From a virus (taxonomy: Duplodnaviria > Caudoviricetes), in the IMG/VR virus record IMGVR_UViG_3300032030_000037, positions 1-64,000 of that record: a stretch of 64,000 bases of DNA; one strand, given 5' to 3'. Positions 1,645 through 58,003 of this stretch are shown one piece after another. The position numbers and the translations under genes were made by a program. Positions within the stretch are counted from its first letter, which is position 1; every line of letters starts with the position of its first letter. The notes under the pieces are model-generated. The model was not told the DNA's origin, did not search any database, and was given only the letters and a program-made list of their open reading frames with translations.

Positions 1645-1839
1645 TTAAGCCGGTGCAAATATATACCTGCCGAGCTTAGTTTTTGCTTTTCCGGCTAAAC
1701 TAGTTAACTCTTTTCTTTCTTTTTCCTCTAGTCCATCAAGAAATCTATCTTTAAGCCAAAGCTTTATAGCTCTCTTTTTACCTGGACCTGGACTTAGACT
1801 TAGAGCATATTCTTTTTGACGTTTTCTCAAGATTATCAT
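1645..1839 (-). CDS. Small basic leader-bearing protein (MIILRKRQKEYA)
   Basis: ORF track 1645..1851; start moved to ATG 1839, which gives the shared leader. Confidence 0.7.
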   Translation of the reverse strand: MIILRKRQKEYALSLSPGPGKKRAIKLWLKDRFLDGLEEKERKELTSLAGKAKTKLGRYIFAPA

Positions 1840-1840
1840 A

Positions 1841-2719
1841 TTACCAATCAAAGTTATTTCTATCTATCCTGGTATTATTTCTGGACTCATTGTAGGTATA
1901 TCCTCCAGACATGGATGCACGTTCTCTAGCTTCCCTGGCGTCTTCTCTATCCTGAGCACGATGAGAGTCTTCCCATTCCATTTTTTCGCGACGAATCTTG
2001 TCCTCTCTTGCTTCCTGACGTCTCTTTTCAGCTAATTCAGCGGCTCTTCTTGCGGCTTCTCTCTTAGCTTCTTCTCTCTTGTCTATTTGTCCCTGAATTC
2101 TAGATTCGAAGTCTGCATCATCGCCTTTTCTTCTAGCCTCATCGTCCATTCTTCGTGCTAGTTTCTTAGCTCTAGTATCTGAGTCGTGAAGGTCTTCTTT
2201 AGCATATTTTAAGCCTCTTGTCTGACCTTTCCTTCTTCCTTCGGCTTCACCAGAATCTCTACCAGCCTTCTTTCCGAGAGCTCTTCCTAGTAATCCTCCA
2301 CCAACTGCTCCAATAACACCAAGACCGGCTTTTTTAGTTGCAATGCCAAGGCCTAGACCTCCTAATACGCTTCCAGCTATAGTTCCTGCCTTCTTTCCTT
2401 TCTTTTCACCTATTTCAGCCCCTTTCTTAGCCTCGTGTTCTCCATGATGCTTGACATACTTCTTTGTATTTCTTTTAGCTCTCTCCTGTTCTTCTTCAAG
2501 AGCATCAAGCATTTGTCCACGAGTCATGTGTTTTAGATCATAGTCAGAATAATCTTCTAGGTCTTTTGGTTTTCTAGGGAAATCGTCACCTTCATCGTCA
2601 TCATCATCTGAGAATTCACGCTGAGCATAATCATAACCATCTTCTAGTCCACTGTAGTAAACTTCCTGAAGAATAAGATCTAGTTTTTCATTTCCTGTTG
2701 AAAATAATTTCTGTTTCAT
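1841..2719 (-). CDS. Putative internal head protein: KLFSTG..EVYYSG..QREFS module, glycine zipper, charged coiled coil
   Basis: N-terminal module shared with 33889..34416 and 34442..35620; GxxxG-rich segment (AGTIAGSVLGGLGLG). Confidence 0.75.
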   Translation of the reverse strand: MKQKLFSTGNEKLDLILQEVYYSGLEDGYDYAQREFSDDDDDEGDDFPRKPKDLEDYSDYDLKHMTRGQMLDALEEEQERAKRNTKKYVKHHGEHEAKKGAEIGEKKGKKAGTIAGSVLGGLGLGIATKKAGLGVIGAVGGGLLGRALGKKAGRDSGEAEGRRKGQTRGLKYAKEDLHDSDTRAKKLARRMDDEARRKGDDADFESRIQGQIDKREEAKREAARRAAELAEKRRQEAREDKIRREKMEWEDSHRAQDREDAREARERASMSGGYTYNESRNNTRIDRNNFDW

Positions 2720-2732
2720 TTTTTTTTAGATT

Positions 2733-3302
2733 CTATTTTTTGTTCCATTTCCCGCTCTGATATGCACGAAGACAATTCTCGGCGGATTCTCTCGATTTGT
2801 AGATTGGTTTCCAGTAGACGGGTTGTCCACCAGGTCCATTCATATTAATAATTCTCCATCGTCCCTGTGAATCTTGCTGTACGACGCCTTTTTTCTCAGC
2901 CTTCTTAGCAATTTTCTTTGGGACTACTTCTCGTGGCTTATATCCAAGTTCTGGGTCGGGTATGGTTTCTGCAAATCTCTTTTCAAAATATCCGGATTCC
3001 CACATCTTGTCTATAACACTATATCCACGCTCCTGGGCCCTTCTTTCTCTTCTTCTCTTTAGGAGTCTGTGTATTCCATAGAGTGCAAGAGCTCCTGCGG
3101 CTACCGGATGTGCTGCCATTAACATAGCACCTTTGGCGAGAAGACCCGAACCTAGAGCTGTTCCGGTTGCTGCAAGTTGTCCGATTCCCGCCGCTCCGGT
3201 GGCACCGGCGACGGCCGCAGCTTTTCCAGCCATTCCAAGGTTCTGAAGTCCAGCCCCTAGGACGCCCCCAACTGCATATTGTTTTTCTTTATATATTATC
3301 AT
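2733..3302 (-). CDS. Leader-bearing protein with Gly/Ala-rich hydrophobic segment and small C-terminal domain
   Basis: MIIYKEKQYA leader; internal RGYS and KRFA sites. Confidence 0.75.
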   Translation of the reverse strand: MIIYKEKQYAVGGVLGAGLQNLGMAGKAAAVAGATGAAGIGQLAATGTALGSGLLAKGAMLMAAHPVAAGALALYGIHRLLKRRRERRAQERGYSVIDKMWESGYFEKRFAETIPDPELGYKPREVVPKKIAKKAEKKGVVQQDSQGRWRIINMNGPGGQPVYWKPIYKSRESAENCLRAYQSGKWNKK

Positions 3303-3312
3303 ATGATATTTT

Positions 3313-4155
3313 TTAAGTTTCTGGAACTGCCTGACCAGCTTTTGTTTTTGTTATTGTTATATAATGTCCACTGGAACTGGTAGTTCTTTTTAAATTGTAT
3401 GAATAATTAAATGCCCCATCACTTACATAATTACAGACCCTGCTTTCTCCGACGGGCGTAGCAGTATCAAAATAGAAGTAAGTAAATTCACGATCTTCAG
3501 TAAATCGGATATAGGCACCGGCTGTATCACAAGTCCAAAAACCCTGATAATCATCAAAGAGGGCATAGTCTGAGTCTATCGAAATACCAGTAATGTGAAT
3601 CTCTGCATAAGACTGGTTTGGCGTGACTGGAGTTGTTGGATCATACGGTGTAGGGTCTGGAAGATTACCGGTTGGCATATTAAAAGACGAAGCAGTAATT
3701 GCAGCATTAGTATTAGATAGCCACCAATTTCCATATACGGCATCTTGAACGACATAATATCCACTACTAGAGCTCGTTATTCCAGTTCCACTCAGAGAAG
3801 TAATTAATGATGGAGTTCCCGAGGCTGGGACGGTATATAGTTTTCCATTACTGCTAACTTGATATAGGGCAGTATGATACCTTCCTTGAGAACTATTTAC
3901 ACTAGATTGATATACATAACATCCGGCTGAACCATCAAAATCTGGACTGGACTGAAGAGGTACTATTATTCTAGAACTAGATCTCATGGCTGATATACTA
4001 TTTCCACATGCATAGGGGTCGTTCGCATCTAGTGTAGCAAATTTTTTTATACTCGGTCCGAAGGCGTTCATCTCTTCAACTATAAAAAGAAATGTAGACC
4101 GCATCCTTGACCATAAGTGACCTAAGCCACTTCCATTTAAATATTTTTCTGCCAT
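3313..4155 (-). CDS. Fiber-like virion protein (KYL..GL..LW anchor)
   Basis: N-terminus KYLNGSGLGHLWSR; Ser/Thr/Tyr-rich beta-type body. Confidence 0.6.
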   Translation of the reverse strand: MAEKYLNGSGLGHLWSRMRSTFLFIVEEMNAFGPSIKKFATLDANDPYACGNSISAMRSSSRIIVPLQSSPDFDGSAGCYVYQSSVNSSQGRYHTALYQVSSNGKLYTVPASGTPSLITSLSGTGITSSSSGYYVVQDAVYGNWWLSNTNAAITASSFNMPTGNLPDPTPYDPTTPVTPNQSYAEIHITGISIDSDYALFDDYQGFWTCDTAGAYIRFTEDREFTYFYFDTATPVGESRVCNYVSDGAFNYSYNLKRTTSSSGHYITITKTKAGQAVPET

Positions 4156-4164
4156 ATCATTTTA

Positions 4165-5508
4165 TTACCAAAGTCTACCATCAAGTGTTACAGTTCCAAA
4201 TAATCCGTTCGTTCCAGAGGTTGTACATTTAGGTCTTGTGGTCATTGATGGTTTAGTGAATGCCTGTGTAAATGATCCAGTGATTGTTGATGTATTGCTG
4301 CTCGGCCAATACCCTATATACTGATCCTCTATACCTTTATCTGTGTTGCTAAGATAAGCGTCCATTATTATATATGTCGTAGTCACTGTTCCACTACTAG
4401 GGATATCTACAAAGTAATTATTTACATCCGTGAAATTAAATGTCATATATCCACTTCCAGTTGTTATACTACTGTTAACAAGGCCCCTTTGAAAGAAAGT
4501 ATATGGAGTACTATTATAAGTTCCAAAATAGGCATACATCTTAATCAGAATTCTATCGTTGGGAAGAATACCAGAAATATAGAAGGTTGCAGAAGGAAGG
4601 GTTCCGGAATATACACAAGCTCCTGTAGACCTATACCATCGTAGAGTTGGTTGTAAGTTTCTTTGCGCCCAATTATAAATATTAATCGTAACATTAGCGG
4701 GAAGGGATGTATAGGCTCTTTCTTCATTAAATATAAGATGTCCTTCCGGCGGATTAACCAGAGAAGACACTATTGGAGATAGTCTATATCCGAAAGATGT
4801 TGTTCCGTCGGTAGCTGGAACTATTGGAACATTAGTTAGGCTTGTGGTAGTTGAATTAGCGCTTATGGTTTGTTGGGCTGTTTGATAATAAACACTCTCT
4901 CCGTTGACTGGTTTACATACCTCTATAAATGTATTCACCTGAGGCTTGGTTTCAGCATCTGTAGTCCTAGTTAGTGTTCCGCTTACAGTCATAGTGTGCC
5001 AATCAACTGATGCATTCTCAAGGGATATAGTATGTCCATATATAGCCCCTACTTGTTGAAAGTCTACTGTAAACGTATATTTACTCGCTAAGGTAGAGAC
5101 ACTTAAGATATTCACTTCTCTAATCCAATATAGTCTATATGAGGTGCTGCCAGTTCTAAGATATATATCTTGAAATGTAATAGAAGTTTTCCCGGCCAAA
5201 AGATTAAAATATTTTACTCTGGGATTACTACCAGACGTCCAGTTTAGTTCAAATACTAAGTTTACATCTACAGGCTGAGACAGGGAACAGACCATGGTAT
5301 CACAATAATAGTTAGAATAAAGATATCCATCCTCACCTCTATAAAGACTATGTTCTACTAAAATAGTAGCTGTAACTGGTATTGGGGAGTTTCCGCCCAC
5401 CGAATGAGTATAAGTTATAGAAGGGAGCTCGCTAGATTTAAGTTCATATCTTTGTTTATATTTAGACCATAGATATCCGAGTCCCGTATTTCCTAGATAT
5501 TTTCCCAT
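4165..5508 (-). CDS. Fiber-like virion protein (KYL..GL..LW anchor)
   Basis: N-terminus KYLGNTGLGYLWSK; Thr/Ser-rich beta-type composition. Confidence 0.6.
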   Translation of the reverse strand: MGKYLGNTGLGYLWSKYKQRYELKSSELPSITYTHSVGGNSPIPVTATILVEHSLYRGEDGYLYSNYYCDTMVCSLSQPVDVNLVFELNWTSGSNPRVKYFNLLAGKTSITFQDIYLRTGSTSYRLYWIREVNILSVSTLASKYTFTVDFQQVGAIYGHTISLENASVDWHTMTVSGTLTRTTDAETKPQVNTFIEVCKPVNGESVYYQTAQQTISANSTTTSLTNVPIVPATDGTTSFGYRLSPIVSSLVNPPEGHLIFNEERAYTSLPANVTINIYNWAQRNLQPTLRWYRSTGACVYSGTLPSATFYISGILPNDRILIKMYAYFGTYNSTPYTFFQRGLVNSSITTGSGYMTFNFTDVNNYFVDIPSSGTVTTTYIIMDAYLSNTDKGIEDQYIGYWPSSNTSTITGSFTQAFTKPSMTTRPKCTTSGTNGLFGTVTLDGRLW

Positions 5509-5525
5509 CTTTTACTTTCTCCCTA

Positions 5526-6071
5526 TTAATATCCATATGTTGGACGGACTCCATCATTTCTATAAATTTCCCAACTGTGGGGAGTCATTCTTCCAACGGT
5601 ATCTCCTTCTACAGGCAGATGCCAGGAAGTTGTAGTACTTCCGTTTGCTTTATACCATCCTATTGCTCTCTGTGTTCTCTTCGCTGATTCATTCCAAAGA
5701 CTATCTGAATTAAGCGTATAGAATGTACTAGGCCAGGGTTCAGAAGATGAATTTCTGGTTCTAATCATGGTATACTCATTGTTCTCACCAAATACAACCG
5801 TCTGTGTAGTTCCATTGTTTGACACCGTTATACTTTTTGGGCTGTCATAGTAGATACTCGTTCCTAAGTATATCATCTTAGTCTCAAATCCTACTTCATC
5901 TGGCGCTACACACTTTATTCTTTCTCCCGCACCCCAGAATACAATTATATTAGTTTCGTTAGAATATCCAGGGTCTGTTATTTCTTCAAGACTTCTAACT
6001 ATATGTGCATCAGCGACACTAGTAAAATAGCTTAGTCCTTCTCCACTCAAGTATTTATCTTCTGTATCCAT
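5526..6071 (-). CDS. Fiber-like virion protein (KYL..GL anchor)
   Basis: N-terminus KYLSGEGLSYF. Confidence 0.55.
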   Translation of the reverse strand: MDTEDKYLSGEGLSYFTSVADAHIVRSLEEITDPGYSNETNIIVFWGAGERIKCVAPDEVGFETKMIYLGTSIYYDSPKSITVSNNGTTQTVVFGENNEYTMIRTRNSSSEPWPSTFYTLNSDSLWNESAKRTQRAIGWYKANGSTTTSWHLPVEGDTVGRMTPHSWEIYRNDGVRPTYGY

Positions 6072-6085: not shown

Positions 6086-6304
6086 TTATAGTGTATTTTC
6101 TTTAGCCATTATATATCCAAGCTCTGCCCTTAAGTCTTCCAGATCCTCATCGATATATTTAAGATCTAGTCGATAGGCTTTGTCGTCGGAGTAGTCAGAT
6201 TGGTGGGATTTGATTCTCTCCCTATCTTTCTCAAGTTGTTTTATTTCTGCCCTTATTTCATCGACGGATCTTTCTCCTAGGGCAAGCTTTCTTTTAATTA
6301 TCAT
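6086..6304 (-). CDS. Small coiled-coil protein, MIIKR leader
   Basis: ORF track; overlaps neighbour; MIIKRK start. Confidence 0.7.
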   Translation of the reverse strand: MIIKRKLALGERSVDEIRAEIKQLEKDRERIKSHQSDYSDDKAYRLDLKYIDEDLEDLRAELGYIMAKENTL

Positions 6305-6683
6305 AGATTATACTATGTATATTATTATTTTTTATTCCCTTTACAGATAATAGGTCTTTATATAAATCGAATAAAGAATCATAATCTTTATCTAGTCCAG
6401 ACACTTTATTTCCCCTACCCTCTCTATAAAACCATTTATTCTTGTCTACTATATATCCAATCCAGCAATTATCGTCTTTGGAAATAAGCAAATCTATTGT
6501 AACACCTTTCCAGTTTTTAATTTTCCACTCTTTCATCCTAGCCTCTATATGGTCTCTATCAGGAAGCGGAAGGTTTTCCGGTAAGGATTTATATTTATTT
6601 TCTGGAAGATCATTTAGCCTTTCCTCGAAGACTTCAAAATCAACAGGAGGCATAATTATAGTATCTCTTCTTTTAATTATCAT
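6294..6683 (-). CDS. Hypothetical protein, MIIKR leader
   Basis: ORF track; MIIKRR start; ATGA-type overlap with upstream gene. Confidence 0.7.
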   Translation of the reverse strand: MIIKRRDTIIMPPVDFEVFEERLNDLPENKYKSLPENLPLPDRDHIEARMKEWKIKNWKGVTIDLLISKDDNCWIGYIVDKNKWFYREGRGNKVSGLDKDYDSLFDLYKDLLSVKGIKNNNIHSIIYDN

Positions 6684-7195
6684 AGCTTAGTTTTAATAAT
6701 CTCTATTGACTTCTTTAGATAATCTACTATACTAGAGTCTTCATCCCAGGCGTCGTGTTCATTCCAATCACTAAGATACTCTAGGAATTCATCTAAAATT
6801 ATTTGTTTTACTTGATTCCAGGATAATTGTTTCCCTGGAATGTAATCAAAAGGATTTTTCTTTTCTTTTTCAAGCAATATCCAAGTTTTCTTTTTAAAAT
6901 CATAAGAAATCCCTTCAGTCCTAGGCGTTATGATTTTATTTGTTTTTCTTGGCATTGGCTCTATTATAATGATAGACTCTGGAATAAATCCATTAAGAAA
7001 TTCTAATATCTCTTCCTTCTTATAGTAATTATCTATACTATCAATGGCACTATCTAGGTTCGGAACATTTACGTCTGCCCCAAACCTAGGATATTTAGAA
7101 TTAATCTCCTTCTGGGCTTTTCTAAATTTCTTCCACTCTGACGGAAGATTGGCTTCTATTAGCTTAATATTATTGGAGCTTCTTTTAATTATCAT
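6680..7195 (-). CDS. Hypothetical protein, MIIKR leader
   Basis: ORF track; MIIKRS start. Confidence 0.7.
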   Translation of the reverse strand: MIIKRSSNNIKLIEANLPSEWKKFRKAQKEINSKYPRFGADVNVPNLDSAIDSIDNYYKKEEILEFLNGFIPESIIIIEPMPRKTNKIITPRTEGISYDFKKKTWILLEKEKKNPFDYIPGKQLSWNQVKQIILDEFLEYLSDWNEHDAWDEDSSIVDYLKKSIEIIKTKL

Positions 7196-7572: not shown

Positions 7573-7908
7573 CTATTTCTTAGGTTTTAATTTATCTACG
7601 GCTTTCAAAAATTCAGTCATTTCATCTTGACCCGGATATTTAGGGCCATACATAGATTTTTCGAGTGAGTTCATTGGTTTATATTTTCTATACGCTGTTA
7701 TCTTTCCAGCTCCTCCTTTGGCTTTTGCGTTAATTAGATTCTGTATATTAGAAGCCGGTAGCGAACCACTGTAGTCTCTCAGTCTTTCTCTGGCCTGTTT
7801 TGTAGCTTCAGCACCAGTCTTTCCATGACCAAATATACTATTTCTTATTGCTTTATTTGTCGCCTTAGTCACAGCTCTAGAATAGAGTTTTTGTCGTAGT
7901 AATATCAT
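7573..7908 (-). CDS. Basic leader-bearing protein (MILLRQKLYS), paralog of 7925..8236
   Basis: Leader followed by shared VTKAxN..IR and I..LIN segments. Confidence 0.75.
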   Translation of the reverse strand: MILLRQKLYSRAVTKATNKAIRNSIFGHGKTGAEATKQARERLRDYSGSLPASNIQNLINAKAKGGAGKITAYRKYKPMNSLEKSMYGPKYPGQDEMTEFLKAVDKLKPKK

Positions 7909-7924: not shown

Positions 7925-8236
7925 TTAATTTAAGCCTCTCCTTCCATGATCATAAATCCACTTAATTCTCTTCTCTTTTTCTGGACCACCTTCTTTAAGA
8001 TAGGTTCTAAGACTTTTATTCGCACCTGTAGTCTTAAGAAGGACAGCGCCCGTGGTCTTAGATTTCATTAGTGCTCTATTATTTATGACATCATGAATAT
8101 TTTCGGGAAAGTATTCGTAGTTGACAACAAATTTATCACCAATTCTTTGTTGTTTGTATCCCAGTCGTCTCCTTATTTCTCTATTGGCTGCCTTGGTAAC
8201 TCCCTTAGAGAACACTCTCTGTCTTAGTAGTATCAT
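7925..8236 (-). CDS. Basic leader-bearing protein (MILLRQRVFS)
   Basis: Leader; paralog of the adjacent gene. Confidence 0.75.
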   Translation of the reverse strand: MILLRQRVFSKGVTKAANREIRRRLGYKQQRIGDKFVVNYEYFPENIHDVINNRALMKSKTTGAVLLKTTGANKSLRTYLKEGGPEKEKRIKWIYDHGRRGLN

Positions 8237-14487: not shown

Positions 14488-15156
14488 TTACTTATCGTTT
14501 TCTAATATTGTAACAAATTCATTCTCCTCAATAATATATTTGAGAAGTTTAAAGTATTGTATTTCATTCAATCTTCCACCATAGACAGTCATAACATAGA
14601 TATCTCCGTCCGGAACAGTCTTAGTTCTAAACGCACCAGACATTCCGCGTATAAAATCATCTATATCATACTGGCTGTATTCATATTCATATGGAAGATA
14701 TAATTTAAGATTTCCCAGGTCAGAAGTTATAGATATAGAATCTTTAGAAATTCTGGACGCTATATCATAATCGTCGAGACCTGCGTTATCTAATTTCTTT
14801 GTTATTCTATCAATCATTTGTCGATTTCCTGAATATAGTCTCTGTTCTGAAGCTTCTTTATATTGAATAAGAGAGATATTATCATCAGAGAGGTACGCTG
14901 TGAGTGTTTTATCCGATCTAGAATGTTTTATTTCCAGAAGAATTTTATCTGGTTCTATATGTTTTCTAGATGCTATTCCCATTTCACGTATAAAATCATC
15001 CTCCTGATATCCAAGACTTTTGGCATCATCTTCTATCTCTTCTAATATACCTGGATGATCATATATTTCATCTCTGATTTTCCCTAAGAGATGTGTATAT
15101 TCATCCTTTCCAGTTTTTCCGATGTAAGTAAATCTCTTAGTTCGTAAAATTATCAT
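14488..15156 (-). CDS. Leader-bearing two-domain protein (MIILRTKRFT; internal QRLYS)
   Basis: ORF track; motif at the N-terminus and mid-protein. Confidence 0.7.
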   Translation of the reverse strand: MIILRTKRFTYIGKTGKDEYTHLLGKIRDEIYDHPGILEEIEDDAKSLGYQEDDFIREMGIASRKHIEPDKILLEIKHSRSDKTLTAYLSDDNISLIQYKEASEQRLYSGNRQMIDRITKKLDNAGLDDYDIASRISKDSISITSDLGNLKLYLPYEYEYSQYDIDDFIRGMSGAFRTKTVPDGDIYVMTVYGGRLNEIQYFKLLKYIIEENEFVTILENDK

Positions 15157-15158
15157 AA

Positions 15159-15308
15159 CTATCTTCCTTGTCCTCTGTATGGTTTTACATAGTGCTTGGA
15201 TGACTTAAGCTTTGACGTTCTGCATTTTGAGTGAATTCCGCGTCTTTTCTTATGCCTATTATCCCTGCCTCTAGTTCCCGTTGTTACTATTTGTTGTACT
15301 CTTGCCAT
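15159..15308 (-). CDS. Small basic protein ending KPYRGQGR (49 aa, below ORF-track cutoff)
   Basis: Manual translation MARVQQIVTTGTRGRDNRHKKRRGIHSKCRTSKLKSSKHYVKPYRGQGR*; fills the gap between neighbours. Confidence 0.7.
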   Translation of the reverse strand: MARVQQIVTTGTRGRDNRHKKRRGIHSKCRTSKLKSSKHYVKPYRGQGR

Positions 15309-15546
15309 ATATTACATTTCCATATTTCTGCTGTTGCCAGGAATTAAACTCTTTTCTGGTTTTTCCAGCGTTTATTCTCCACTTATTTCCTCCTGTTTCG
15401 TTATTAAACCTTTTCCACCGCAGACTATTGGCAGCTCTTTTTCGATTCGGATTAAGGTTTTCTACTCCTTCTGGTTTCTTTTCAACCTTTCTCCTATTAT
15501 TGTCTATTGTTTCAGACAGAGAAAATGTTTTTCGTAGTATAATCAT
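15271..15546 (-). CDS. Basic leader-bearing protein (MIILRKTFS)
   Basis: ORF track; leader. Confidence 0.7.
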   Translation of the reverse strand: MIILRKTFSLSETIDNNRRKVEKKPEGVENLNPNRKRAANSLRWKRFNNETGGNKWRINAGKTRKEFNSWQQQKYGNVIYGKSTTNSNNGN

Positions 15547-16787
15547 TTGTCGTATAAATTTATATTTCCTTGATAGGTTTTCATTATTTTTTGAATAATT
15601 AGCTCTATCTCTTTCCTACTCTGGATACTATATGTCCAAACTATAACTTTTCCCGTATCTTTTCTTCCCATTTTTAGGATCCAAGGCTTAAGAATCTTAT
15701 CTAGCTCTTCAGAATCTTTTCCCTTATCTGCTGTAATTATTAGAAGCCCTGAAATTATAGATACTTGAATCGGTGCATCAGATTTAGAACCTACTGTATA
15801 ATGAAATCCCTCTATATATCTATTTTTCTTAAGGATATCCTCAAGATAGACGTTTCCGAAGTTTTCTCTCGGCGCAGGATGTCCTGTCTTGATTAGTTCA
15901 TCAGTGTTTATTTTTTCAGCCGCACTAGAAATAAGCGTAGTTATGAAATTAGAAAAAGACGTTCCAATTCCTCGTCTTGCTCCTATAAAAGCGGAGCGTC
16001 CCGCTTTCCCTAATATTTTCATAATCTCATACTTATTTAGTACGGCAACACTAAAATTTTTAGTGGTTTCCTCCCCGAGACCGCCCTCCTCACTTGCCTC
16101 TTTTATTCTTGAGTCTACAATTGCCTTATTATCAAGTAAATTTATTTTACACTCAAGCACTTGAGAAAGTTCCATAATAAAATTACTAATAACTTGATAA
16201 TTTGTAAATATTATATCGACGGAATAAGAATTTAGTTTATAGTTTATTACACTACTATTATATTCCATACCCGTATATTTCTTACAATAATAATCAAGAG
16301 TTTTGTCAACTTTATCTAATTCGTCATTAGATAGGTCGAATGTATACATAGTAATTTTATTATCTTGAACTGCAAAATTTAATTTATACTTGGATACTTG
16401 TCTGTCAGAGAACCCAAATTTTTCATCAATATCAGCTCTTTTATCTAATTTATCTCCAACCGTTATTCCTGCCATTCTGTAAATTCCAAACTCTCTTCTG
16501 ATATTTCGATCGATCTCTTGAAATTTAACTTTTGACATGGGTTTGTGAAGATAGTTTATAAAGACCTTAAGAAAAATTCCAGCAATGCCTCCAGCTTTAG
16601 TTCCAGTTTTAAATCCTTCCCAAGCAGTTGAGTCTTTTAGTGCTGCACCAATTGCGCTTCCGGCAAGAGCTCCACCAATTGCGCTTTTTCCAACTACCTC
16701 TACAGCCCCAGGAACTTTGTCCATGTCTTTAGGGCCAGTGTAGTGCCCCTCTTTAAGGCTAAAATCTTTTTGTCTAAATCTAATCAT
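15543..16787 (-). CDS. Leader-bearing protein with glycine zipper (MIRFRQKDFS; internal KNFS)
   Basis: GGALAGSAIGA...GGIAG segment after the leader. Confidence 0.75.
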   Translation of the reverse strand: MIRFRQKDFSLKEGHYTGPKDMDKVPGAVEVVGKSAIGGALAGSAIGAALKDSTAWEGFKTGTKAGGIAGIFLKVFINYLHKPMSKVKFQEIDRNIRREFGIYRMAGITVGDKLDKRADIDEKFGFSDRQVSKYKLNFAVQDNKITMYTFDLSNDELDKVDKTLDYYCKKYTGMEYNSSVINYKLNSYSVDIIFTNYQVISNFIMELSQVLECKINLLDNKAIVDSRIKEASEEGGLGEETTKNFSVAVLNKYEIMKILGKAGRSAFIGARRGIGTSFSNFITTLISSAAEKINTDELIKTGHPAPRENFGNVYLEDILKKNRYIEGFHYTVGSKSDAPIQVSIISGLLIITADKGKDSEELDKILKPWILKMGRKDTGKVIVWTYSIQSRKEIELIIQKIMKTYQGNINLYDK

Positions 16788-44152: not shown

Positions 44153-44446
44153 CTATTGAACAATTTTTGTAATTATATAAGTCGTATCATTATCCTTAAT
44201 GACAGTCTCTAGTGTGTATTCTTTGGCTTGGAATACTTTTGGCCTCATCTCTACTTGTCTTTCTTTTTCGCCAATAATTAAACCAATTGATACGGCTATA
44301 ATGACAACTCCAACGACAACTAGAAAGGTGTTTAATCTCTCGCCGCCCCTGGCTTTAGCACTTCTAAATATGCCAATACCCATCATCGCCCATCCAATAA
44401 CAAACAAAACGAGCGAAATTATAATTACCATAGTAAACTTAATCAT
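44153..44446 (-). CDS. Two-TM protein
   Basis: ORF track; paralog of 42825..43112. Confidence 0.7.
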   Translation of the reverse strand: MIKFTMVIIISLVLFVIGWAMMGIGIFRSAKARGGERLNTFLVVVGVVIIAVSIGLIIGEKERQVEMRPKVFQAKEYTLETVIKDNDTTYIITKIVQ

Positions 44447-44919
44447 AATCTATCTAATTTTATATACATCTCTTTTGGTGCTTCTAACGCTAGGCCTTTT
44501 TCAATCAGGCCTTGATAGTCGAAATGATGTTTATTAAGCCAGTTGATAAGATATAGATAATCCTTTAAACTACACTCTGTATCATTGTCCCACCATCCCT
44601 CCATATGATAACGTATTGTTATACTACCAAAATCTGAGAAGTTATAAGATTTATTAATTTCTTTTCTCTCCTCTTCTGTCATAGATGATAGTGGACGAAG
44701 AAATGGCTTGACTTCAGATAAAAGACATGACCAATCTCTTATACGACCATTTTCATCGTAGGTAAATTCAACGGTTTCCTCCGTAATTGTATCTATAGTA
44801 GCAATACAGTCACATTCCCTATGATTACAGTCTTCTTCCTTATGGTATGGAAATTTAATTCCATACGGAAATTTAAAACAAAGGTCTATAAATAGCAGCT
44901 CTTTGTCTTCCTGTGTCAT
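44443..44919 (-). CDS. Paralog family member 1 (LL.DL...PYG / KPYLRP.SSMTEEE / HFD..GLI..GLA)
   Basis: Conserved motifs shared by four genes. Confidence 0.8.
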   Translation of the reverse strand: MTQEDKELLFIDLCFKFPYGIKFPYHKEEDCNHRECDCIATIDTITEETVEFTYDENGRIRDWSCLLSEVKPFLRPLSSMTEEERKEINKSYNFSDFGSITIRYHMEGWWDNDTECSLKDYLYLINWLNKHHFDYQGLIEKGLALEAPKEMYIKLDRL

Positions 44920-45122
44920 AATTCTTCTTCTTTTTTACTGTATGAATTGAACGGACATTCTAAACAAGGATATGGAACTACTTCATCCATTACGCTATGT
45001 CCTGGTTTTTTGTCCAATATTTCACAATGAGCAATGTACTTGTCTAATGGCATTGGAAAATCAAGCCAGTAATGCTCGCAAGTCATGCACAAATCTTTCT
45101 CTTGTCGCTCTTCTCGTGTCAT
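44916..45122 (-). CDS. Small Cys-rich protein (possible Zn binding)
   Basis: CxxC...C...CxxC pattern. Confidence 0.6.
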   Translation of the reverse strand: MTREERQEKDLCMTCEHYWLDFPMPLDKYIAHCEILDKKPGHSVMDEVVPYPCLECPFNSYSKKEEEL

Positions 45123-45126
45123 ATTT

Positions 45127-45339
45127 TTAATCTTCGAAATCGTCTAAATATACAAAATCACCGTCAAGCCTATCAGGACCGTTGCCGTCATATTCAATAT
45201 GCCAGACAACAACGCACGGATATTTTTCCGGTTCAAACCAAAAATCAGATTCCACATTACCATGCCCTGGAATGTAACCGGTATTATAGTTCACGAAAGA
45301 ATCAAAATCTTCCTTACTTTTGAGTAGTGTTTTATTCAT
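45127..45339 (-). CDS. Hypothetical protein
   Basis: ORF track. Confidence 0.6.
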   Translation of the reverse strand: MNKTLLKSKEDFDSFVNYNTGYIPGHGNVESDFWFEPEKYPCVVVWHIEYDGNGPDRLDGDFVYLDDFED

Positions 45340-45342
45340 AAT

Positions 45343-45765
45343 CTATTCAGTTTTATACATTCCTTCTGGTGCCTCGAGAGCGAGACCCATAGGAATCAAG
45401 CCACGGAAATCAAAATGGTTTGCAAGGAGCCAATCAATGACAGCGGAAAAATCTTCTACATAAACAAACATAATAGATTCACCCTCGCTGTTGAGTGTGG
45501 CCCCAAGCATATGCCTGTATATATATTTTTCTTCTTCTGTCATAGAAGACATTGAACGGAGGTAGGGCTTGATGTGTTCCGCAGGGAACTTGAATGCGCC
45601 AGTATCAACTTTTACAATAATTGACTTGTTATCGTTAGGCTCAATACCTAATAGTGTGCAAGTATGATTTTCCCTTATTGCAGAAGTATAAAAGTTTAAC
45701 TTAACTCCATACGGCAATCTTGCACAAAGGTCTTTAAGTAGTAGTTGTTTTTCTTCTTTAGTCAT
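45343..45765 (-). CDS. Paralog family member 2
   Basis: Same motifs as member 1. Confidence 0.8.
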   Translation of the reverse strand: MTKEEKQLLLKDLCARLPYGVKLNFYTSAIRENHTCTLLGIEPNDNKSIIVKVDTGAFKFPAEHIKPYLRSMSSMTEEEKYIYRHMLGATLNSEGESIMFVYVEDFSAVIDWLLANHFDFRGLIPMGLALEAPEGMYKTE

Positions 45766-45768
45766 AAG

Positions 45769-46029
45769 CTAAAATCCTAATATTACTTGAAGATAGTTAT
45801 CAATAAAATGAATTGGAAGTGATGGTGTGCGACCATCCTTGCCGATTGGGTATTTTTTGCCTTCATAAACAATATAGTATCCGTCACTTTCGCTTTCTTT
45901 TACTTTGCAAAGAAAAGCCAATAATGATGGGTCGTGCCGCACAACCCCCAAAAAGCGGTCACTTGGTGAATAAAGAAAAGCTTCAAACTCTCCTGCGTGA
46001 TTATCAAAAGTTAATTCTTCTTCAATCAT
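45769..46029 (-). CDS. Hypothetical protein
   Basis: ORF track. Confidence 0.6.
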   Translation of the reverse strand: MIEEELTFDNHAGEFEAFLYSPSDRFLGVVRHDPSLLAFLCKVKESESDGYYIVYEGKKYPIGKDGRTPSLPIHFIDNYLQVILGF

Positions 46030-46032
46030 AAT

Positions 46033-46458
46033 TTATTCGGTTTTATACATATCTTCTAGTGCCTCGAGAGCCAACCCCATTGGAATCAGCCCTCGGTAGT
46101 CAAAATGATGGGCATTCAACCAATCAATATGACAATATTGCGGAGTAAACTTATTTTCAGGATGAAATGTCCCTGCCTCGAACTGTTCTCTTAACCCGTC
46201 AGCAGTTCTGTCCAAATCTATATCGACTTGCTTATGGTATTCTGTCTTTTCTTCCTCAGTCATACTTGACATTGGACGAAGATATGGGATAATAGTTACA
46301 TCATCATAGTCAAGTATATAGTTATTCAAAGATAAATTTGTGATATATGGCTCCTTTGTTTCATTAAAGTATTTTTCCCCTTCTATTCTTACCATCACCC
46401 CATAAGGTAATCTCCCACAAAGATCAACCAATAAAAGTTGTTTTTCTTCTTGTGTCAT
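46033..46458 (-). CDS. Paralog family member 3
   Basis: Start moved to MTQEEKQ (46458) by paralog alignment. Confidence 0.8.
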   Translation of the reverse strand: MTQEEKQLLLVDLCGRLPYGVMVRIEGEKYFNETKEPYITNLSLNNYILDYDDVTIIPYLRPMSSMTEEEKTEYHKQVDIDLDRTADGLREQFEAGTFHPENKFTPQYCHIDWLNAHHFDYRGLIPMGLALEALEDMYKTE

Positions 46459-46463
46459 ATTAT

Positions 46464-46637
46464 CTAATACAGTGGTTTCCAATTTAACCTATGATTCTTT
46501 TTGATATGTCGATGATACACTCTTAAAGCTTTCATCCATCTTGGCGGTCCAAGTAACCAACCATAGTGATTTGGCTTACCATTTACAGCTTTTTGTAGTT
46601 CTCTAACGATTATCTTCTTAGCTTGTCTAAATTTCAT
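46464..46637 (-). CDS. Small basic protein (MKFRQAKKI..., 57 aa)
   Basis: Manual translation; fills the gap. Confidence 0.55.
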   Translation of the reverse strand: MKFRQAKKIIVRELQKAVNGKPNHYGWLLGPPRWMKALRVYHRHIKKNHRLNWKPLY

Positions 46638-47119
46638 ATCTTATACATTTCAGGTTTGGCCTCAATTGCTAACCCTTTTTCAATAAGATGGTTAATATCA
46701 AAGTGCCTTTCAAGGAGCCACGAAATTGCAAGAAAGGCCTCTTCCATAGAAGTTCCTACATCATAAATATCATTATGAAAGGCTCCATCATAGCATACAC
46801 CAAGTTTTCCAACCTCCCTCTCTTCTTCCTCTGTCATACTCGACATTGGACGAAGATAAGGTTTGATTTTATATTCTTCAATATTAAATCCTCCACATCT
46901 TACATCGTATTGTGCTATCGGCTTATCAAGTTCATCGACAATAATTCTTTCTTCATCTGGAAATATAGCATCTAGAACACCAACAAGAGTTCTTCCATTT
47001 TCATAGGAAAACTGATTAGTGAACTCAGTTCTTTCAGGTTCAGTTACAGATATTTTTACTTTATATGGCAACCTTGCAGATAGGTCCTTCAATAGCAGTT
47101 GTTTTTCTTCTGTAATCAT
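46634..47119 (-). CDS. Paralog family member 4
   Basis: Same motifs as member 1. Confidence 0.8.
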   Translation of the reverse strand: MITEEKQLLLKDLSARLPYKVKISVTEPERTEFTNQFSYENGRTLVGVLDAIFPDEERIIVDELDKPIAQYDVRCGGFNIEEYKIKPYLRPMSSMTEEEEREVGKLGVCYDGAFHNDIYDVGTSMEEAFLAISWLLERHFDINHLIEKGLAIEAKPEMYKI

Positions 47120-53912: not shown

Positions 53913-54122
53913 TTAAAATTTTCCCATCCTAATTTTATAGGTCTCGGGATTATTTTTAAATTCATCTTCTGCAGCTACCTCTTTATAGGCCTGATGATTT
54001 AAAGCTTCATAGGCAGGATTTTTTGCTTGGATATATGAAAAATCCCCATTCCTAAAACGCTTTCTGAATTTGGGTTTGAAAGAGGCAGCAGTAGCATAAG
54101 TTTTTTGTCGTAATATAATCAT
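53913..54122 (-). CDS. Leader-bearing small protein (MIILRQKTYA)
   Basis: ORF track. Confidence 0.7.
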   Translation of the reverse strand: MIILRQKTYATAASFKPKFRKRFRNGDFSYIQAKNPAYEALNHQAYKEVAAEDEFKNNPETYKIRMGKF

Positions 54123-54292
54123 ATAATTCCTCTTCTAATTTTTTCTTTCCCTAACCACTCCAGGGCACGAACATATCCAATCTTCCACATAGTACTTCCT
54201 GGCTTGAATTGCTTATTAATTCTAGCTCTCATCTTAAGTAGTTCGTTAGCCAGGAAATTACGAACTCTGGAAAACACGCGTCTAATTACCAT
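54119..54292 (-). CDS. Leader-bearing 57-aa basic protein (MVIRRVFS), below ORF-track cutoff
   Basis: Manual translation; overlaps both neighbours. Confidence 0.65.
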   Translation of the reverse strand: MVIRRVFSRVRNFLANELLKMRARINKQFKPGSTMWKIGYVRALEWLGKEKIRRGII

Positions 54293-54665
54293 ATTCCATC
54301 TCTATTTGCTTTGGGCCTAGGTTAGTATTATTAGCTTTAAATCCTACTTTTGTATATAGATTAATTGCAGCTTGATTATTTCGTGAAACGCTTAATTTTT
54401 TACAGCCAGATTTTATTGCCGTCCTAATCAGCTTCTCTCCAAATCCTTTCTCACGGTATTTAGATAAAACTTCAAGAGCGACTATATAATCTCCTTTCCA
54501 AGCACAATATCCTATCAAATCATTTCTATTTTTAGAGACGAACATAACTCCTTCAACGTCTGGTCCTATTTTAGCATGACGTAGTAAGTTATCGGGGCTC
54601 TTATACTTTTCAACCGCTTCTTTCGTATACTGAATTTCACGGTATTGCTTTCTCTTTACTATCAT
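54282..54665 (-). CDS. GNAT-family acetyltransferase with leader (MIVKRKQYR)
   Basis: LEV..KYREKGFGEKLI (acetyl-CoA motif A) and N..AINLY.KVGF (motif B). Confidence 0.8.
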   Translation of the reverse strand: MIVKRKQYREIQYTKEAVEKYKSPDNLLRHAKIGPDVEGVMFVSKNRNDLIGYCAWKGDYIVALEVLSKYREKGFGEKLIRTAIKSGCKKLSVSRNNQAAINLYTKVGFKANNTNLGPKQIEMEYGN

Positions 54666-54797: not shown

Positions 54798-55209
54798 TTA
54801 TTTTGCGTATTCTATTTCAATTATACTATGTCCGAGAAGATTGGTTACTAGAATATAGTTAATGCTTTTAAAAATGAGATAGTTAACTCGGTTCTCGCTA
54901 TCAATCTCAGCACTCCAAATTACACACTCGTTGTCCTCATCATAAAACTCCCACAAAGGGTGCTGACCATAATTTCCTTGGAATGGCTTTGTTTCTAGCT
55001 CTTTTAGTATAGAGTCTACTATCTTTTGCTGTTTATCGTCAAGCTCTTGATATTCATCACAAGCATTTTCAGACAAACTAATCTCCCATGGTCCAAACTT
55101 TTTATAACTAGAGCTCCTCTTAAAAAATTCTAGTTCTTTTTATTTTACCTTTCTTCCCACCAAATCCATCCTGAAGGCCAACAAAAAGTTTCTGTCTACC
55201 TAATATCAT
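54798..55209 (-). CDS. Txe/YoeB (RelE-superfamily)-like RNase domain, joined to the leader ORF only by a +1 frameshift
   Basis: WEISLSENA.DEY...IVDSILKEL...PFQG.....PL....WS..ID.ENRVNY...LGH resembles YoeB; upstream 29-codon ORF MILGRQKLF... (55209-55120) ends ATT TTT TAA. Confidence 0.65.
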
Positions 55210-55357
55210 CTCTCTTGTCCCCAAACTCTTTTTGTTTTCTTCTTTCCTTACTTTTCTTCTTAAGTTCAGCAAGAAGTTCTGGTGTTACTTTGTATTTCTT
55301 TCCCTCTAATGCCTCATTTATCTTACTCAGCGTATATTCAATTTCTTTCTCATTCAT
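55196..55357 (-). CDS. 53-aa basic protein upstream of the YoeB-like gene (antitoxin candidate)
   Basis: Manual translation MNEKEIEYTLSKINEALEGKKYKVTPELLAELKKKSKERRKQKEFGDKRDDIR*; own promoter motif at 55374-55385. Confidence 0.55.
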   Translation of the reverse strand: MNEKEIEYTLSKINEALEGKKYKVTPELLAELKKKSKERRKQKEFGDKRDDIR

Positions 55358-55519
55358 AATATTATCTCCTTTTTCAATTATAAGGTTCTAGATTTCTCAT
55401 GGAGGCAGATTAATTAAGAGAAGATAAGGGAATTTCACAACTGCCTTCTTCCCTTGCCACACTATATCTAATTACCTCCTTCCTTTAATTAAACATTGAA
55501 AAATCTGTGTGGACTTTAT

Positions 55520-55867
55520 TTATTTCTTTCCTTCAAAGTATTTCTTCTTTTCTTCTCTCCAATATTTTTTGACATCAGACATTGGAGCATCAAACACTAA
55601 TGGAAGATATCCATCAGTTTCATATACATTTGGATATTCTTTCCTAGTTCCAGTTTTCTTATCTACCCTAATTACCTTTCCGTCTTTTGCCTGATAGAAT
55701 CGGTACTTACTATCGGCATATCCTCCTAAGCCTTTATAACCTTTTTCCTTAAACTCCTTATCATCTTCTTCCCATCTAGGATCAGATATAGGCTTTTTAA
55801 TAGTACTGCTTTTATCTGGGGTTCTGGGCGCAAATTTCGTAAATGATCTTTGTCGTAGTATTATCAT
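55520..55867 (-). CDS. Leader-bearing protein (MIILRQRSFT)
   Basis: ORF track. Confidence 0.75.
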   Translation of the reverse strand: MIILRQRSFTKFAPRTPDKSSTIKKPISDPRWEEDDKEFKEKGYKGLGGYADSKYRFYQAKDGKVIRVDKKTGTRKEYPNVYETDGYLPLVFDAPMSDVKKYWREEKKKYFEGKK

Positions 55868-55882
55868 AGCTTATAAATTTAC

Positions 55883-56173
55883 TTAGTCACCAGCCTCTAA
55901 AAACTCACATTCGCCAGTTTTATTATTTTTCCGTATTGCCCAATAAAAGTCAGGGCCGTAAGTATTATAAATTTTAGATCCTACCTTTGCTTGGAAATAG
56001 ACATCAGTATACCTTGGGTCTTTATCATTTTCATCAAATTTTTCTAGACTCGCGGCAAAATCATTTGGCAAGTGCTTCGTTTTTCCGTATTTCTTTTCAT
56101 ACGAATAAATCTTGTCTACAGCTTTATCGAAATCTGTCTTTCCTGAATATAGTTTCTGTCTTAATAGTATCAT
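55883..56173 (-). CDS. Leader-bearing protein (MILLRQKLYS)
   Basis: ORF track. Confidence 0.75.
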   Translation of the reverse strand: MILLRQKLYSGKTDFDKAVDKIYSYEKKYGKTKHLPNDFAASLEKFDENDKDPRYTDVYFQAKVGSKIYNTYGPDFYWAIRKNNKTGECEFLEAGD

Positions 56174-56667
56174 AGCTTATAAATTTTTCTTGTTCTTGAA
56201 TCTACTGCAATCCAGCCTTCCCGACCAGATCCAAACACATAGAGTGGATGGATATAGCCTTCTGGTTTTTGAATTACAAATATCTGTGTCTGTGGGAGTA
56301 TGTAATTTGCATCTCTTAGAATCTCAACGGCCTCTAAGAATGTCAACTCAAGCTCTCCCGGAAGTATATCCATCTGTCCGCCAGAGGTTCTTCCTTTAAT
56401 TGTATGAAGAGTATCGGGATAAACTACCACACATCCGTCCCTCAGTTCATAGACTTCTGTATAGTCAATTATCCTTATTGTATCACTATAGTTCTTTAGG
56501 TCCCCAGAGAATATACATGTGGCTGTTTTTAATTTAGCCTCTGGATATTCTTGGAGAACCGTACTATAGTCTCTACCTAATGTTTCTATGTAATCTTGTT
56601 CTTTCGGTTTTTCCTTACATGATCCTACGAAAACTATTCCTAGGAAAATAATTAATATTTTACGCAT
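56170..56667 (-). CDS. Predicted lipoprotein
   Basis: MRKILIIFLGIVFVGSC signal peptide with lipobox-like Cys. Confidence 0.65.
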   Translation of the reverse strand: MRKILIIFLGIVFVGSCKEKPKEQDYIETLGRDYSTVLQEYPEAKLKTATCIFSGDLKNYSDTIRIIDYTEVYELRDGCVVVYPDTLHTIKGRTSGGQMDILPGELELTFLEAVEILRDANYILPQTQIFVIQKPEGYIHPLYVFGSGREGWIAVDSRTRKIYKL

Positions 56668-56938
56668 GTGCTGGAGTTAATTTATTCTTTGATCTAACTA
56701 AGTTATGTACCTCGGCTTCCTGCTCTAATCTTAATTTTTTAGCTTCCTTTAAGGCATTAGTAACTCTATTTTTTCTTGGGCCGAAGAAGTCAGAATATTC
56801 TCCTCTACTGCGTATCTTTAAGACTTTATCCAAAGTCTCTCCTCTTTTCATTTGTGCTTTAAGTCTCTCTATTGGGCCTAGTTTCTTTAAAGATTCTGTA
56901 TAGGCTCGATTAAATGATTTTTGTCGTAAGAGTATCAT
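56660..56938 (-). CDS. Leader-bearing basic protein (MILLRQKSFN)
   Basis: ORF track. Confidence 0.75.
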   Translation of the reverse strand: MILLRQKSFNRAYTESLKKLGPIERLKAQMKRGETLDKVLKIRSRGEYSDFFGPRKNRVTNALKEAKKLRLEQEAEVHNLVRSKNKLTPAHA

Positions 56939-57441
56939 AATTTCTTTGTTTTTCCTTTTTTATCCCACTCTGGCAATATTTCTTTCCATGAATACCGGGT
57001 AAGCTTAGATTCTTGGACTGCTGCATTTTTCTGATTCCTAAGTCCATATCTAAATTTCCTTTCTCCAGAGACACCAAGAACCTCAATATCTGCTATCTTT
57101 TCCATTCTCAACGGAAGAAGACACCAATACTCATGGCCTTCTAAGATATCACGATAGGGGCATTGGGAAAGGTCGGTGGGGAGTGTATTTTCATCTCTTA
57201 ATCCTCTCGGCCGATATACTCCCAGCGTTTTTCCGACCAAATCACGACCCCCTAAGCCAAAGACAGAAATAGCATCGTCCAAGGAATCATAGAGAAGTAT
57301 TCTTTGAGTCTTGTGGTCGATACATTTACGCTGGACCAAGAAATTTTGCGGAACGGCCGGATTTATAGGTTGTTCAGAGAGTCCAAGATTTTCCGATAAC
57401 CAGTATAGGGACTTAGGATTTTTTCTTCTTAGTATTATCAT
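56935..57441 (-). CDS. Leader-bearing protein (MIILRRK), possibly degenerate ADP-ribosyltransferase-like fold
   Basis: P.VP.NF....D..T.RI....S...AI...VY.P...E.W pattern; fold call is tentative. Confidence 0.45.
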   Translation of the reverse strand: MIILRRKNPKSLYWLSENLGLSEQPINPAVPQNFLVQRKCIDHKTQRILLYDSLDDAISVFGLGGRDLVGKTLGVYRPRGLRDENTLPTDLSQCPYRDILEGHEYWCLLPLRMEKIADIEVLGVSGERKFRYGLRNQKNAAVQESKLTRYSWKEILPEWDKKGKTKKL

Positions 57442-58003
57442 ATCCGCTAACCTTTTTTCTTAGATCTTCGGACTTCTTCTTATCCTTATAGTGTTTATAT
57501 GCCTTGATACCACCATAAGTTAATCCGGACGCAGCAAGAACAGAACCACCAATTATAAGGCCTTTTTTATTATTTTTTAGAATCTCTGAAAGTTTTTTCT
57601 TTCCTTTCTTGACAGTCTCAACTTCAACCTCAACCTTGGGCTTTGGTTTATCGAAAGACTTGGCAAAATTTTCTAGATTTTCTTCTTTTGGTTTTGGTTT
57701 ATCTTGATAGAGGTAGTTCTTTAGGCCATACTTTTTTCCATTCAGCTCCTTTCCCGCCTTATCTAGCTCTTCTTTCCAATTATCATTAACCTTTTTAACT
57801 GCTTTCTTATAAGGCTTGCTTCCCTTTTCAAAAACTTCTTCAATTCTATTAATATCCTCTTCTGCTTTTCTATCTATTTCAGCCTTTCGTTGTTTAAACT
57901 GCTTAGCTAATTCATTTCGTTTTTGTAGAAGCTCTTCTTTTCCTTTTTCAGTAAGCCCTTCAAGATCTGCTTTAGAATACAATTTTTGTCGTAGTAATAT
58001 CAT
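57413..58003 (-). CDS. Leader-bearing Lys-rich coiled coil with C-terminal TM segment (MILLRQKLYS)
   Basis: KKGLIIGGSVLAASGLTYGGIKAY. Confidence 0.75.
   Translation of the reverse strand: MILLRQKLYSKADLEGLTEKGKEELLQKRNELAKQFKQRKAEIDRKAEEDINRIEEVFEKGSKPYKKAVKKVNDNWKEELDKAGKELNGKKYGLKNYLYQDKPKPKEENLENFAKSFDKPKPKVEVEVETVKKGKKKLSEILKNNKKGLIIGGSVLAASGLTYGGIKAYKHYKDKKKSEDLRKKVSGYDNTKKKKS

Follow-up and report, generated by a model that had tools for sequence, protein, structure and literature searches.

Why should some 40 genes of one bacteriophage, coding for proteins with little else in common, begin with the same few residues? The question is raised by a stretch of 64,000 nucleotides (hereafter the window) that forms the first 64 kb of a 100,100-bp linear contig, the IMG/VR virus record IMGVR_UViG_3300032030_000037 (Caudoviricetes), where a 6-13-residue N-terminal peptide is common to about 40 unrelated, mostly small basic proteins. 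A first-pass annotation of the window had read this leader as an address that loads a large arsenal of proteins into the phage head. The explanation favoured here, to which a probability of roughly 60% may be attached, is that the leader represents a two-part propeptide, i.e. an address followed by a site for the prohead protease, which marks internal proteins of the head.

The leader ends in the motif [K/R]-x-[F/Y]|[S/A/G/T], where the bar denotes the putative cut, usually with Gln ahead of it in this clade. Its front half takes the form M-I-(I/L/x)-(L/F)-R in class I leaders and a related form in class II. For counting, a front half was defined as M-[IV]-x-[LFKRYG]-[RK], a site as [KR]-x-[FY]-[SAGT] within residues 1-17, and the late gene blocks as 1.6-40.4 kb and 53.9-58.1 kb. 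A leader or part of a leader is then present in 41 of the 61 late-block genes, compared to 4 of the 96 genes elsewhere on the contig (Fisher p = 4e-18); for the front half alone, the figures are 29/61 and 0/96 (p = 6e-15). Over the whole contig, both parts occur together in 18 genes, the site only in 16 and the front half only in 11. The narrower pattern M-[IV]-x-[LFK]-R appears 29 times in the six-frame translation of the 100.1-kb contig, without exception on the minus strand and, with few exceptions, at the start of an open reading frame (ORF), and the front-half pattern follows just one of 591 internal Met residues. Placement of the aromatic residue is likewise constrained: among 277 ORFs from 10 genomes it is found at position 9 in 53 and at position 11 in 27, against a background of 1-3 per position beyond residue 14. 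The 36 starts enumerated in the first-pass annotation are all minus-strand ATG codons that open ORFs with the N-termini quoted there, and its tally of 36 leaders plus 4 front halves comes close to the rule-based count, if on the generous side. A non-canonical residue follows the aromatic at starts 54665 (R), 55209 (V), 22170 (D), 24279 (V) and 26085 (L). Its statement that the bodies are mostly unrelated also holds, as sensitive BLASTP of the proteins stripped of their leaders links a single group of three. As a practical consequence, the motif aids gene calling, selecting the correct start in at least five ORFs with a possible longer upstream start (17908, 21797, 24542, 34416 and 38381).

Such a pattern at gene starts could in principle reside in the nucleic acid, as an A/T-rich start that promotes initiation on late transcripts where the host makes no use of Shine-Dalgarno sequences. 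Upstream regions are indeed A-rich, a Shine-Dalgarno-like sequence precedes only 22 of the 157 genes, the codons of the leader are A/T-rich, and three adjacent genes have identical first five codons. However, the invariant residues are specified by different codons, the Arg by AGA (15 cases), CGA (9) and AGG (1), Leu by CTA, TTA and TTG, and Ser by TCT, TCA, TCC and AGC, which indicates that selection acts on the leader as a peptide and not as DNA. The same peptide motif moreover recurs inside proteins, and no leader is present on the probable genes for capsid and sheath, whose expression is expected to be high. Given the varied codons and these leader-free genes, a signal for translation or a promoter is extremely unlikely, and the translation-initiation bias that the first-pass annotation had named as its own alternative was rejected on codon variation.

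The second half of the leader is by no means confined to N-termini. The motif [KR]-x-[FY]-[SAGT] occurs 91 times in proteins of the late blocks, where 38 occurrences are expected, and 40 times elsewhere, where 44.5 are expected. The excess is evident in a set of minus-strand genes arranged in the order protease, core, scaffold-like and capsid protein, an order kept in relatives. The scaffold-like protein (29674-31893, minus strand; 739 residues, acidic with an isoelectric point (pI) of 4.1, first aromatic at position 11) contains 15 motifs against 0.8 expected, and its orthologues in nine relatives contain 11-19 against at most 1.2. In the core-like protein (31914-32576, minus strand; 220 residues), six motifs resembling a tandem array of leaders all lie in the first 103 residues (0.56 expected), and orthologues in the same number of relatives have 6-8 (about 0.6 expected). 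The predicted prohead protease (32578-33819, minus strand; 413 residues) comprises a catalytic domain (residues 1-185), a linker and a C-terminal helical scaffold-like domain; all four of its motifs (0.8 expected) are found at residues 188-263, in the linker. The probable major capsid protein (28190-29641, minus strand; 483 residues) has two motifs in its first 62 residues, at 36-39 and 59-62, and none in the other 421. Each of 10 orthologues keeps both sites, and the sequence becomes near-invariant around the second one, as would be expected of a propeptide boundary. The identity of this protein is suggested by its distant similarity to the putative major capsid protein of Escherichia coli phage IME392 (hhalign probability 96%, E 2.6e-9), whose gene likewise comes after that of a head maturation protease; no such leader or motif was found in IME392 itself.

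A conserved 576-residue protein (38622-40352, minus strand), an unconfirmed candidate for the portal, shares with the scaffold-like and core proteins an N-terminus of the site-only type, with the aromatic at position 13. It has no family or PDB match; PDB profile searches also returned nothing for a 368-residue protein, the capsid protein and the sheath candidate. Large proteins of the tail module (793, 1068, 652 and 196 residues), in contrast to these head proteins, are leader-free, with motif counts at or below chance. These observations qualify two points of the first-pass annotation. Its leader-bearing set does consist mostly of small basic proteins, but the entries starting at 31893 and 32576, i.e. 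the scaffold-like and core proteins, are involved in head assembly. Its list of untagged tail genes is borne out insofar as the weak sheath or tube matches (the 793- and 196-residue proteins) lack the leader; the assignments themselves are weak, however, and the terminase that it also listed was not found on the contig with PF03237, the sole terminase family tried.

Clues on the enzyme that may act at these sites were provided by structural modelling. In an AlphaFold model built with ten orthologues (predicted local distance difference test score 72), the catalytic domain has the gp21/assemblin fold: residues 1-168 match the prohead protease gp21 of phage T4 (5jbl) with a VIA Z of 11.4 and a root-mean-square deviation of 2.8 over 133 aligned residues (Foldseek E 3e-4, probability 1.0), and the herpesvirus assemblins more weakly (proteases of varicella-zoster virus, Z 6.9, and human cytomegalovirus, Z 6.2). 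H50, S136 and S19 are invariant in close relatives and H88 is nearly so, and the equivalent His and Ser are invariant in a distant set as well. At the sequence level, no Pfam-A family at E <= 0.1, no PHROG and, with a profile of the family, no PDB entry was matched, so that the protease is not filed as a member of Pfam/MEROPS S77 (T4 gp21) or S78 (HK97). The family is rare, with 87 clusters at 50% identity among 1.8 billion proteins. Among its long members that were listed, down to about 25-30% identity, 2-6 motifs are found past the catalytic domain against at most 1.2 expected; for one distant protease (P0198), no viral locus was obtained. Complex prediction for the protease domain (residues 1-185) and a 40-residue N-terminal segment of a tagged protein (score 0.14, mark 0.32) gave no verdict and was used neither way. 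Many family members (P0128-P0200) themselves open with a motif-like strand at about residues 5-10 (K/R-L-F/Y, then S, N or D), which forms the first beta-strand in the modelled protease of the window; this may be a pseudo-substrate or a coincidence.

After removal of the leader, tagged proteins have a median length of about 110 residues and a median pI of 9.7, compared to 5.4 for untagged ones. Almost all remain unnamed after searches of PHROGs, Pfam and NCBIfam, and recognisable domains were found in only two. The first is a GNAT acetyltransferase (54282-54665, minus strand; 127 residues), in which the front half is followed by Tyr-Arg, a non-canonical site; it matches Pfam Acetyltransf_7 (3e-10) and Acetyltransf_1 (1.2e-9), both over their cut-offs. 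The second (35629-36528, minus strand; 299 residues) has a site-type leader and a Dps/ferritin-like N-terminal domain, with matches to a PHROG (2.9e-6), to Dps chains in the PDB (0.003) and to the NCBIfam Dps family (2.7e-5, under the curated cut-off); an internal motif at residues 141-144 lies just beyond the matched Dps-like region (about 15-130).

We propose that the two halves of the leader act in succession. The first half would most likely serve as an address, bringing about 35 small, basic and unrelated proteins into the assembling prohead, where they would probably bind the acidic core. The second half would be the recognition and cut site of the phage's own gp21/assemblin-fold protease (32578-33819), which would cut after the aromatic residue and so remove the leader once the proteins are loaded. 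The same enzyme would cut up two assembly proteins, the scaffold-like one at about 15 sites and the core one at 6, free itself from its C-terminal helical domain by cutting at 4 sites, and trim about 61 residues off the capsid protein. The clipped basic proteins, including the GNAT acetyltransferase and the Dps-like protein, would remain with the DNA; we infer that they would be present in virions and could be delivered to the host.

The evidence for a cut site would serve equally well a simpler reading, in which the leader has no sorting role and is just an optimal substrate of the protease, basic bodies being drawn to the acidic scaffold or core. With a scaffold-like protein of pI 4.1 and tagged bodies that are basic, charge alone could recruit them, and the second site of the capsid protein, where two Leu and then Gln-Lys precede the aromatic, looks like a class I leader. 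A comparison of N-terminal and internal sites speaks otherwise. At N-termini, Arg or Lys stands five residues before the cut in 76% of cases, with Leu, Phe or Ile at the three positions ahead of it, whereas internal sites have acidic residues where the front half would lie (P4-P10) and appear to be used despite lacking this hydrophobic and basic character. The front half also persists on genes without a site, and one tagged protein (14488-15156, minus strand; 222 residues, full class I leader) has an acidic body of pI 4.7.

Further evidence on this point comes from relatives. Leaders are kept on orthologues in all nine diverse relatives examined. In a distant clade, represented by loci L193 and L194, many small ORFs, encoding basic proteins (pI 9-11.5), also begin with a leader carrying the same cut site at its end, but their front half is different, being longer and containing acidic and polar residues, although one sub-class still begins M-I-x-F. 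(A scan of IMG/VR with a degenerate DNA pattern for the leader yielded mostly chance matches and contigs of the same clade.) The cut site thus tracks the protease family, whereas the front half, uniform in any one genome, is clade-specific, as expected for an address co-evolving with its receptor. A front half that varies between clades next to a constant site points to a constraint other than a shared protease pocket, and fits an address separate from the cut site. Processing without sorting is thus considered unlikely, though still deserving of some weight.

A different possibility is that the motif is never cut. Cargo-loading peptides of encapsulins, which are usually C-terminal, bind the shell protein directly and remain uncleaved, with no protease or scaffold involved. 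By analogy, [K/R]-x-[F/Y]-S might bind a pocket on the inner surface of the capsid, on the portal or on the core. As in encapsulins, a short terminal peptide is found here on unrelated putative cargo that includes a ferritin-like protein, a typical class of encapsulin cargo, in a shell presumed to have the HK97 fold; multivalent anchoring would also be in keeping with the several copies present in scaffold, core and protease linker. The sites, however, often lie at or near domain and homology boundaries, which argues for cleavage. An acidic module of about 35 residues, flanked by two sites, is common to three proteins whose bodies are otherwise unrelated (class III leaders), and their homology stops exactly at the second site; a clade-conserved tagged protein of 201 residues (25109-25714, minus strand; full class I leader) has a conserved internal motif in the variable, disordered linker between its two folded domains; and the sites of the protease lie between its domains. 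(For the fold of the 201-residue protein, Foldseek found nothing at E <= 0.001, the best VIA Z was 4.9, and the ESM Atlas gave no usable match.) The small residue after the aromatic, and the copies placed before the conserved body of the capsid protein, also fit removal of a propeptide better than docking, and C-terminal autocleavage is documented for the proteases of phages phiKZ and SPN3US (PMC5694885). An uncleaved docking motif is accordingly seen as quite improbable.

If the leader is a cleaved propeptide, its removal, by the phage protease or another peptidase, might nevertheless take place outside the prohead, as part of a general mechanism that masks or regulates virion proteins, or toxic membrane-active ones, including those of the neck and tail. 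Between 1.6 and 17.9 kb, tagged genes are mixed in among those of the tail module; none of the untagged genes from the capsid gene to the sheath gene was recognised as coding for a neck protein; and several tagged proteins carry hydrophobic segments. The phage also encodes an M42 glutamyl-aminopeptidase-family protein and a ClpB-like ATPase (see below). On the other hand, the motif is most concentrated in head-assembly proteins, the tail-module proteins with weak sheath or tube matches are leader-free, and in the T4-type systems studied the prohead proteases work inside the prohead (PMC5694885). A general late-protein propeptide therefore appears highly improbable.

Several considerations nevertheless weigh against loading and clipping in the head as proposed above. 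About a dozen tagged genes lie among the tail-module genes just mentioned, and family searches of the contig genes recognised no neck or head-completion proteins; some tagged proteins may thus be parts of the neck or tail, which a head protease does not normally meet. In 11 genes, a front half is accompanied by a non-canonical or missing site. They include the trio at 6086-7195 (6086-6304, 72 residues; 6294-6683, 129 residues; 6680-7195, 171 residues; all minus strand), which has front halves only, no site, neutral or acidic products and DNA-identical first five codons. Evidence for the capsid, portal and sheath assignments is weak or positional, invariance is what suggests a catalytic role for H50 and S136, and H50 borders a low-confidence loop of the model. 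Cutting and packaging, moreover, are read from sequence and a predicted fold, on a contig that holds only about 27% of the genome.

The closest parallel is the capsid-targeting sequence that gp21, the prohead protease of phage T4, removes from the internal proteins IPI-III, from Alt and from gp24 (Mullaney and Black 1996, as cited in PMC5694885). The likeness lies in an N-terminal peptide of about 10 residues on otherwise unrelated small basic proteins, in a leader that ends at the motif of the phage's own prohead protease (at which cutting is here predicted), and in a single protease for the capsid protein, the scaffold and itself, as motif enrichment would suggest for the present phage; the protease fold is also the same, according to the model. 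The differences are that the leader sequence is unrelated, that the predicted cut falls after Phe or Tyr with Lys or Arg at P3 whereas T4 cuts after Glu in (L/I)-x-E, and that about 40 tagged genes are found on 27% of a genome, compared to a handful in T4. The protease studied here, furthermore, has no Pfam family and belongs to a different, uncultured lineage, probably with hosts among the Bacteroidota. With its distinct site, the system is best regarded as a variant of the T4 type and not as a member of it. The first-pass annotation had invoked the same parallel but described an independent and expanded equivalent. The parallel gains from the occurrence of the site in head-assembly proteins, the gp21 fold, the small basic tagged proteins and the strictly N-terminal front half. 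Independence is doubtful, however: the present protease is homologous in fold to gp21, which makes divergence inside a single ancient system just as probable as a second invention. The term arsenal fits poorly too, since several of the tagged genes, located between those for the capsid and the sheath, belong to the conserved core, with no obvious swappable set, and some could encode neck or tail parts.

Proteolysis in the heads of giant phages offers a second comparison. In phiKZ, 201phi2-1 and SPN3US, propeptides are cut at (A/S/G)-x-E; processing in SPN3US concerns 8 of about 50 head proteins, mostly by way of propeptides of more than 100 residues (PMC5694885, PMC10052503). Features in common with these phages include a giant genome, many head proteins, extra motifs inside propeptides, an N-terminal segment common to diverged proteins and, as predicted here, C-terminal autocleavage of the protease. 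Unlike in SPN3US, the present leaders are of 6-13 residues, and unlike the proteases of all three phages, which cut after Glu and have no sequence-level link to this family, the enzyme would cut after an aromatic residue. In staphylococcal phage 80alpha, leaders of the capsid and scaffold proteins are cut by the host L27 protease Prp, a cysteine protease. There too, a short N-terminal leader with aromatic residues followed by a small residue is removed during assembly, but the enzyme is that of the host, a member of the Firmicutes, and acts on only two phage proteins.

The tagged genes, all on the minus strand, form several groups. At 1.6-17.9 kb, besides those already described, they encode proteins of 64 residues (1645-1839; class I front half and site), 292 residues (1841-2719; class III, a long acidic propeptide module between two sites), 189 residues (2733-3302; class I plus two internal sites), 111 and 103 residues (7573-7908, pI 10.2, and 7925-8236, pI 10.4; both full class I), 91 residues (15271-15546; short class I, aromatic at position 8), 414 residues (15543-16787; full class I plus three internal motifs), 181 residues (16797-17342; class I, with His replacing the aromatic) and 184 residues (17354-17908; full class I, pI 10.7). 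The next group, which ends ahead of the capsid gene on the map, includes products of 209 residues (21168-21797; full class I, with a hydrophobic segment), 123 residues (21799-22170; class I, Asp after the aromatic), 161 residues (22175-22660; class II-like, aromatic at position 11) and 537 residues (22666-24279; class I, Val after the aromatic, internal motifs at residues 81 and 271). It continues with two class II proteins of 88 and 95 residues (24276-24542 and 24556-24843), a short class I protein of 95 residues (24825-25112; aromatic at position 6), a clade-conserved class I protein of 124 residues (25711-26085; Leu after the aromatic), and two further class II proteins of 133 residues (27196-27597; pI 10.6) and 100 residues (27618-27920; pI 10.1).

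Beyond the protease gene lie the other two genes with class III modules, one for a protein of 175 residues (33889-34416; acidic module between two sites) and one of 392 residues (34442-35620; a short leader and then the module, with four motifs in the first 71 residues), followed by the gene for the Dps-like protein, a 41-residue ORF with a site-only N-terminus (37916-38041), which is a weak member of the set, and a gene for a 111-residue protein (38046-38381) whose class I leader is two residues longer. The block at 53.9-58.1 kb encodes, in addition to the GNAT acetyltransferase, proteins of 69 residues (53913-54122; full class I), 57 residues (54119-54292; short class I, pI 11.6), 115 residues (55520-55867; full class I), 96 residues (55883-56173; full class I plus two more motifs in the first 30 residues), 92 residues (56660-56938; class I, Asn after the aromatic), 168 residues (56935-57441; front half only) and 196 residues (57413-58003; full class I). 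A 29-residue ORF with a class I leader (55120-55209) overlaps a 53-residue ORF by 14 nt (pair 55120-55357), and may be a decayed or frameshifted tagged gene.

Other features of the contig were noted among the untagged genes. Six untagged fibre-like proteins (3313-4155, 4165-5508, 5526-6071, 36525-37109, 58484-59143 and 59482-60396, all minus strand) have in common a second N-terminal module, approximately K-Y-L-x-x-x-G-L-x-x-(L/V)-W-x-K, in their first 25 residues, which may be a shared attachment domain of tail fibres; those at 58484 and 59482 additionally share an internal segment. Within the untagged block, four paralogues of 140-161 residues (44443-47119, minus strand) are conserved at the N-terminus and in a C-terminal domain. 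The M42 glutamyl-aminopeptidase-family protein (61450-62565, plus strand; Pfam 1.6e-54) adjoins the gene for the ClpB-like double AAA+ ATPase (62866-65499, minus strand), which begins in the window and extends past its end; the two might have a role in dealing with peptide debris or in unfolding. Farther along, the contig encodes a CCA-adding/poly(A) polymerase-like enzyme, an IMP dehydrogenase/GMP reductase-like protein and an RNA polymerase beta-like protein of 1055 residues (contig positions 94688-97855, minus strand) that matches Rpb2 domain 6 (2.5e-13), so that the phage has its own multisubunit-type RNA polymerase. This protein has no leader, and nothing suggests that it is loaded into the head by the tag.

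The contig has no terminal repeat and its ORFs are cut off at both ends. CheckV estimates its completeness at 27%, which implies a whole genome of about 370 kb, in agreement with relatives that share the capsid protein at 62-84% identity and have contigs extending to 330-408 kb; a complete genome thus probably has far more tagged genes than were counted here. A megablast search of a phage collection gave no match, and no cultured relative was found. The scarcity of Shine-Dalgarno-like sequences, together with the A-rich upstream regions noted above, suggests that the host probably belongs to the Bacteroidota.

The logic of loading proteins into the head and then clipping them is already known from the T4 capsid-targeting sequence and from head proteolysis in phiKZ and SPN3US. 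Literature searches found no description of the present motif. What would be new is the aromatic-residue cutting rule in a distinct and rare protease family, the two-part architecture, which becomes visible by comparing clades, and the scale, with about two thirds of the late-block genes concerned. Tentatively, and with slightly less than even confidence, we suggest as a general statement that a rare family of gp21-fold proteases in uncultured phages of about 330-400 kb cuts after Phe or Tyr behind a clade-specific address, so that head cargo can be read from the genome and the tag reused. The portable loading tag envisaged by the first-pass annotation is at this stage a speculation.

Should that general statement be correct, at least 40 head-loaded proteins would be encoded on this quarter of a genome, and possibly more than 100 per genome, the GNAT acetyltransferase and the Dps-like protein among them. 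Cutting after Phe or Tyr is unreported in the literature consulted for head proteases of the T4 type, which in the cases cited cut after Glu, and would define a second specificity class among them. Sister clades with the same site and different front halves would provide a natural comparison to separate address from cut site, and the two-part tag could find new use as a signal for loading. Provided that the rule holds, sequence alone would suffice to predict the internal, and probably injected, protein complement of a whole lineage of uncultured giant gut and rumen phages, and with it a list of candidate proteins for host takeover and anti-defence.

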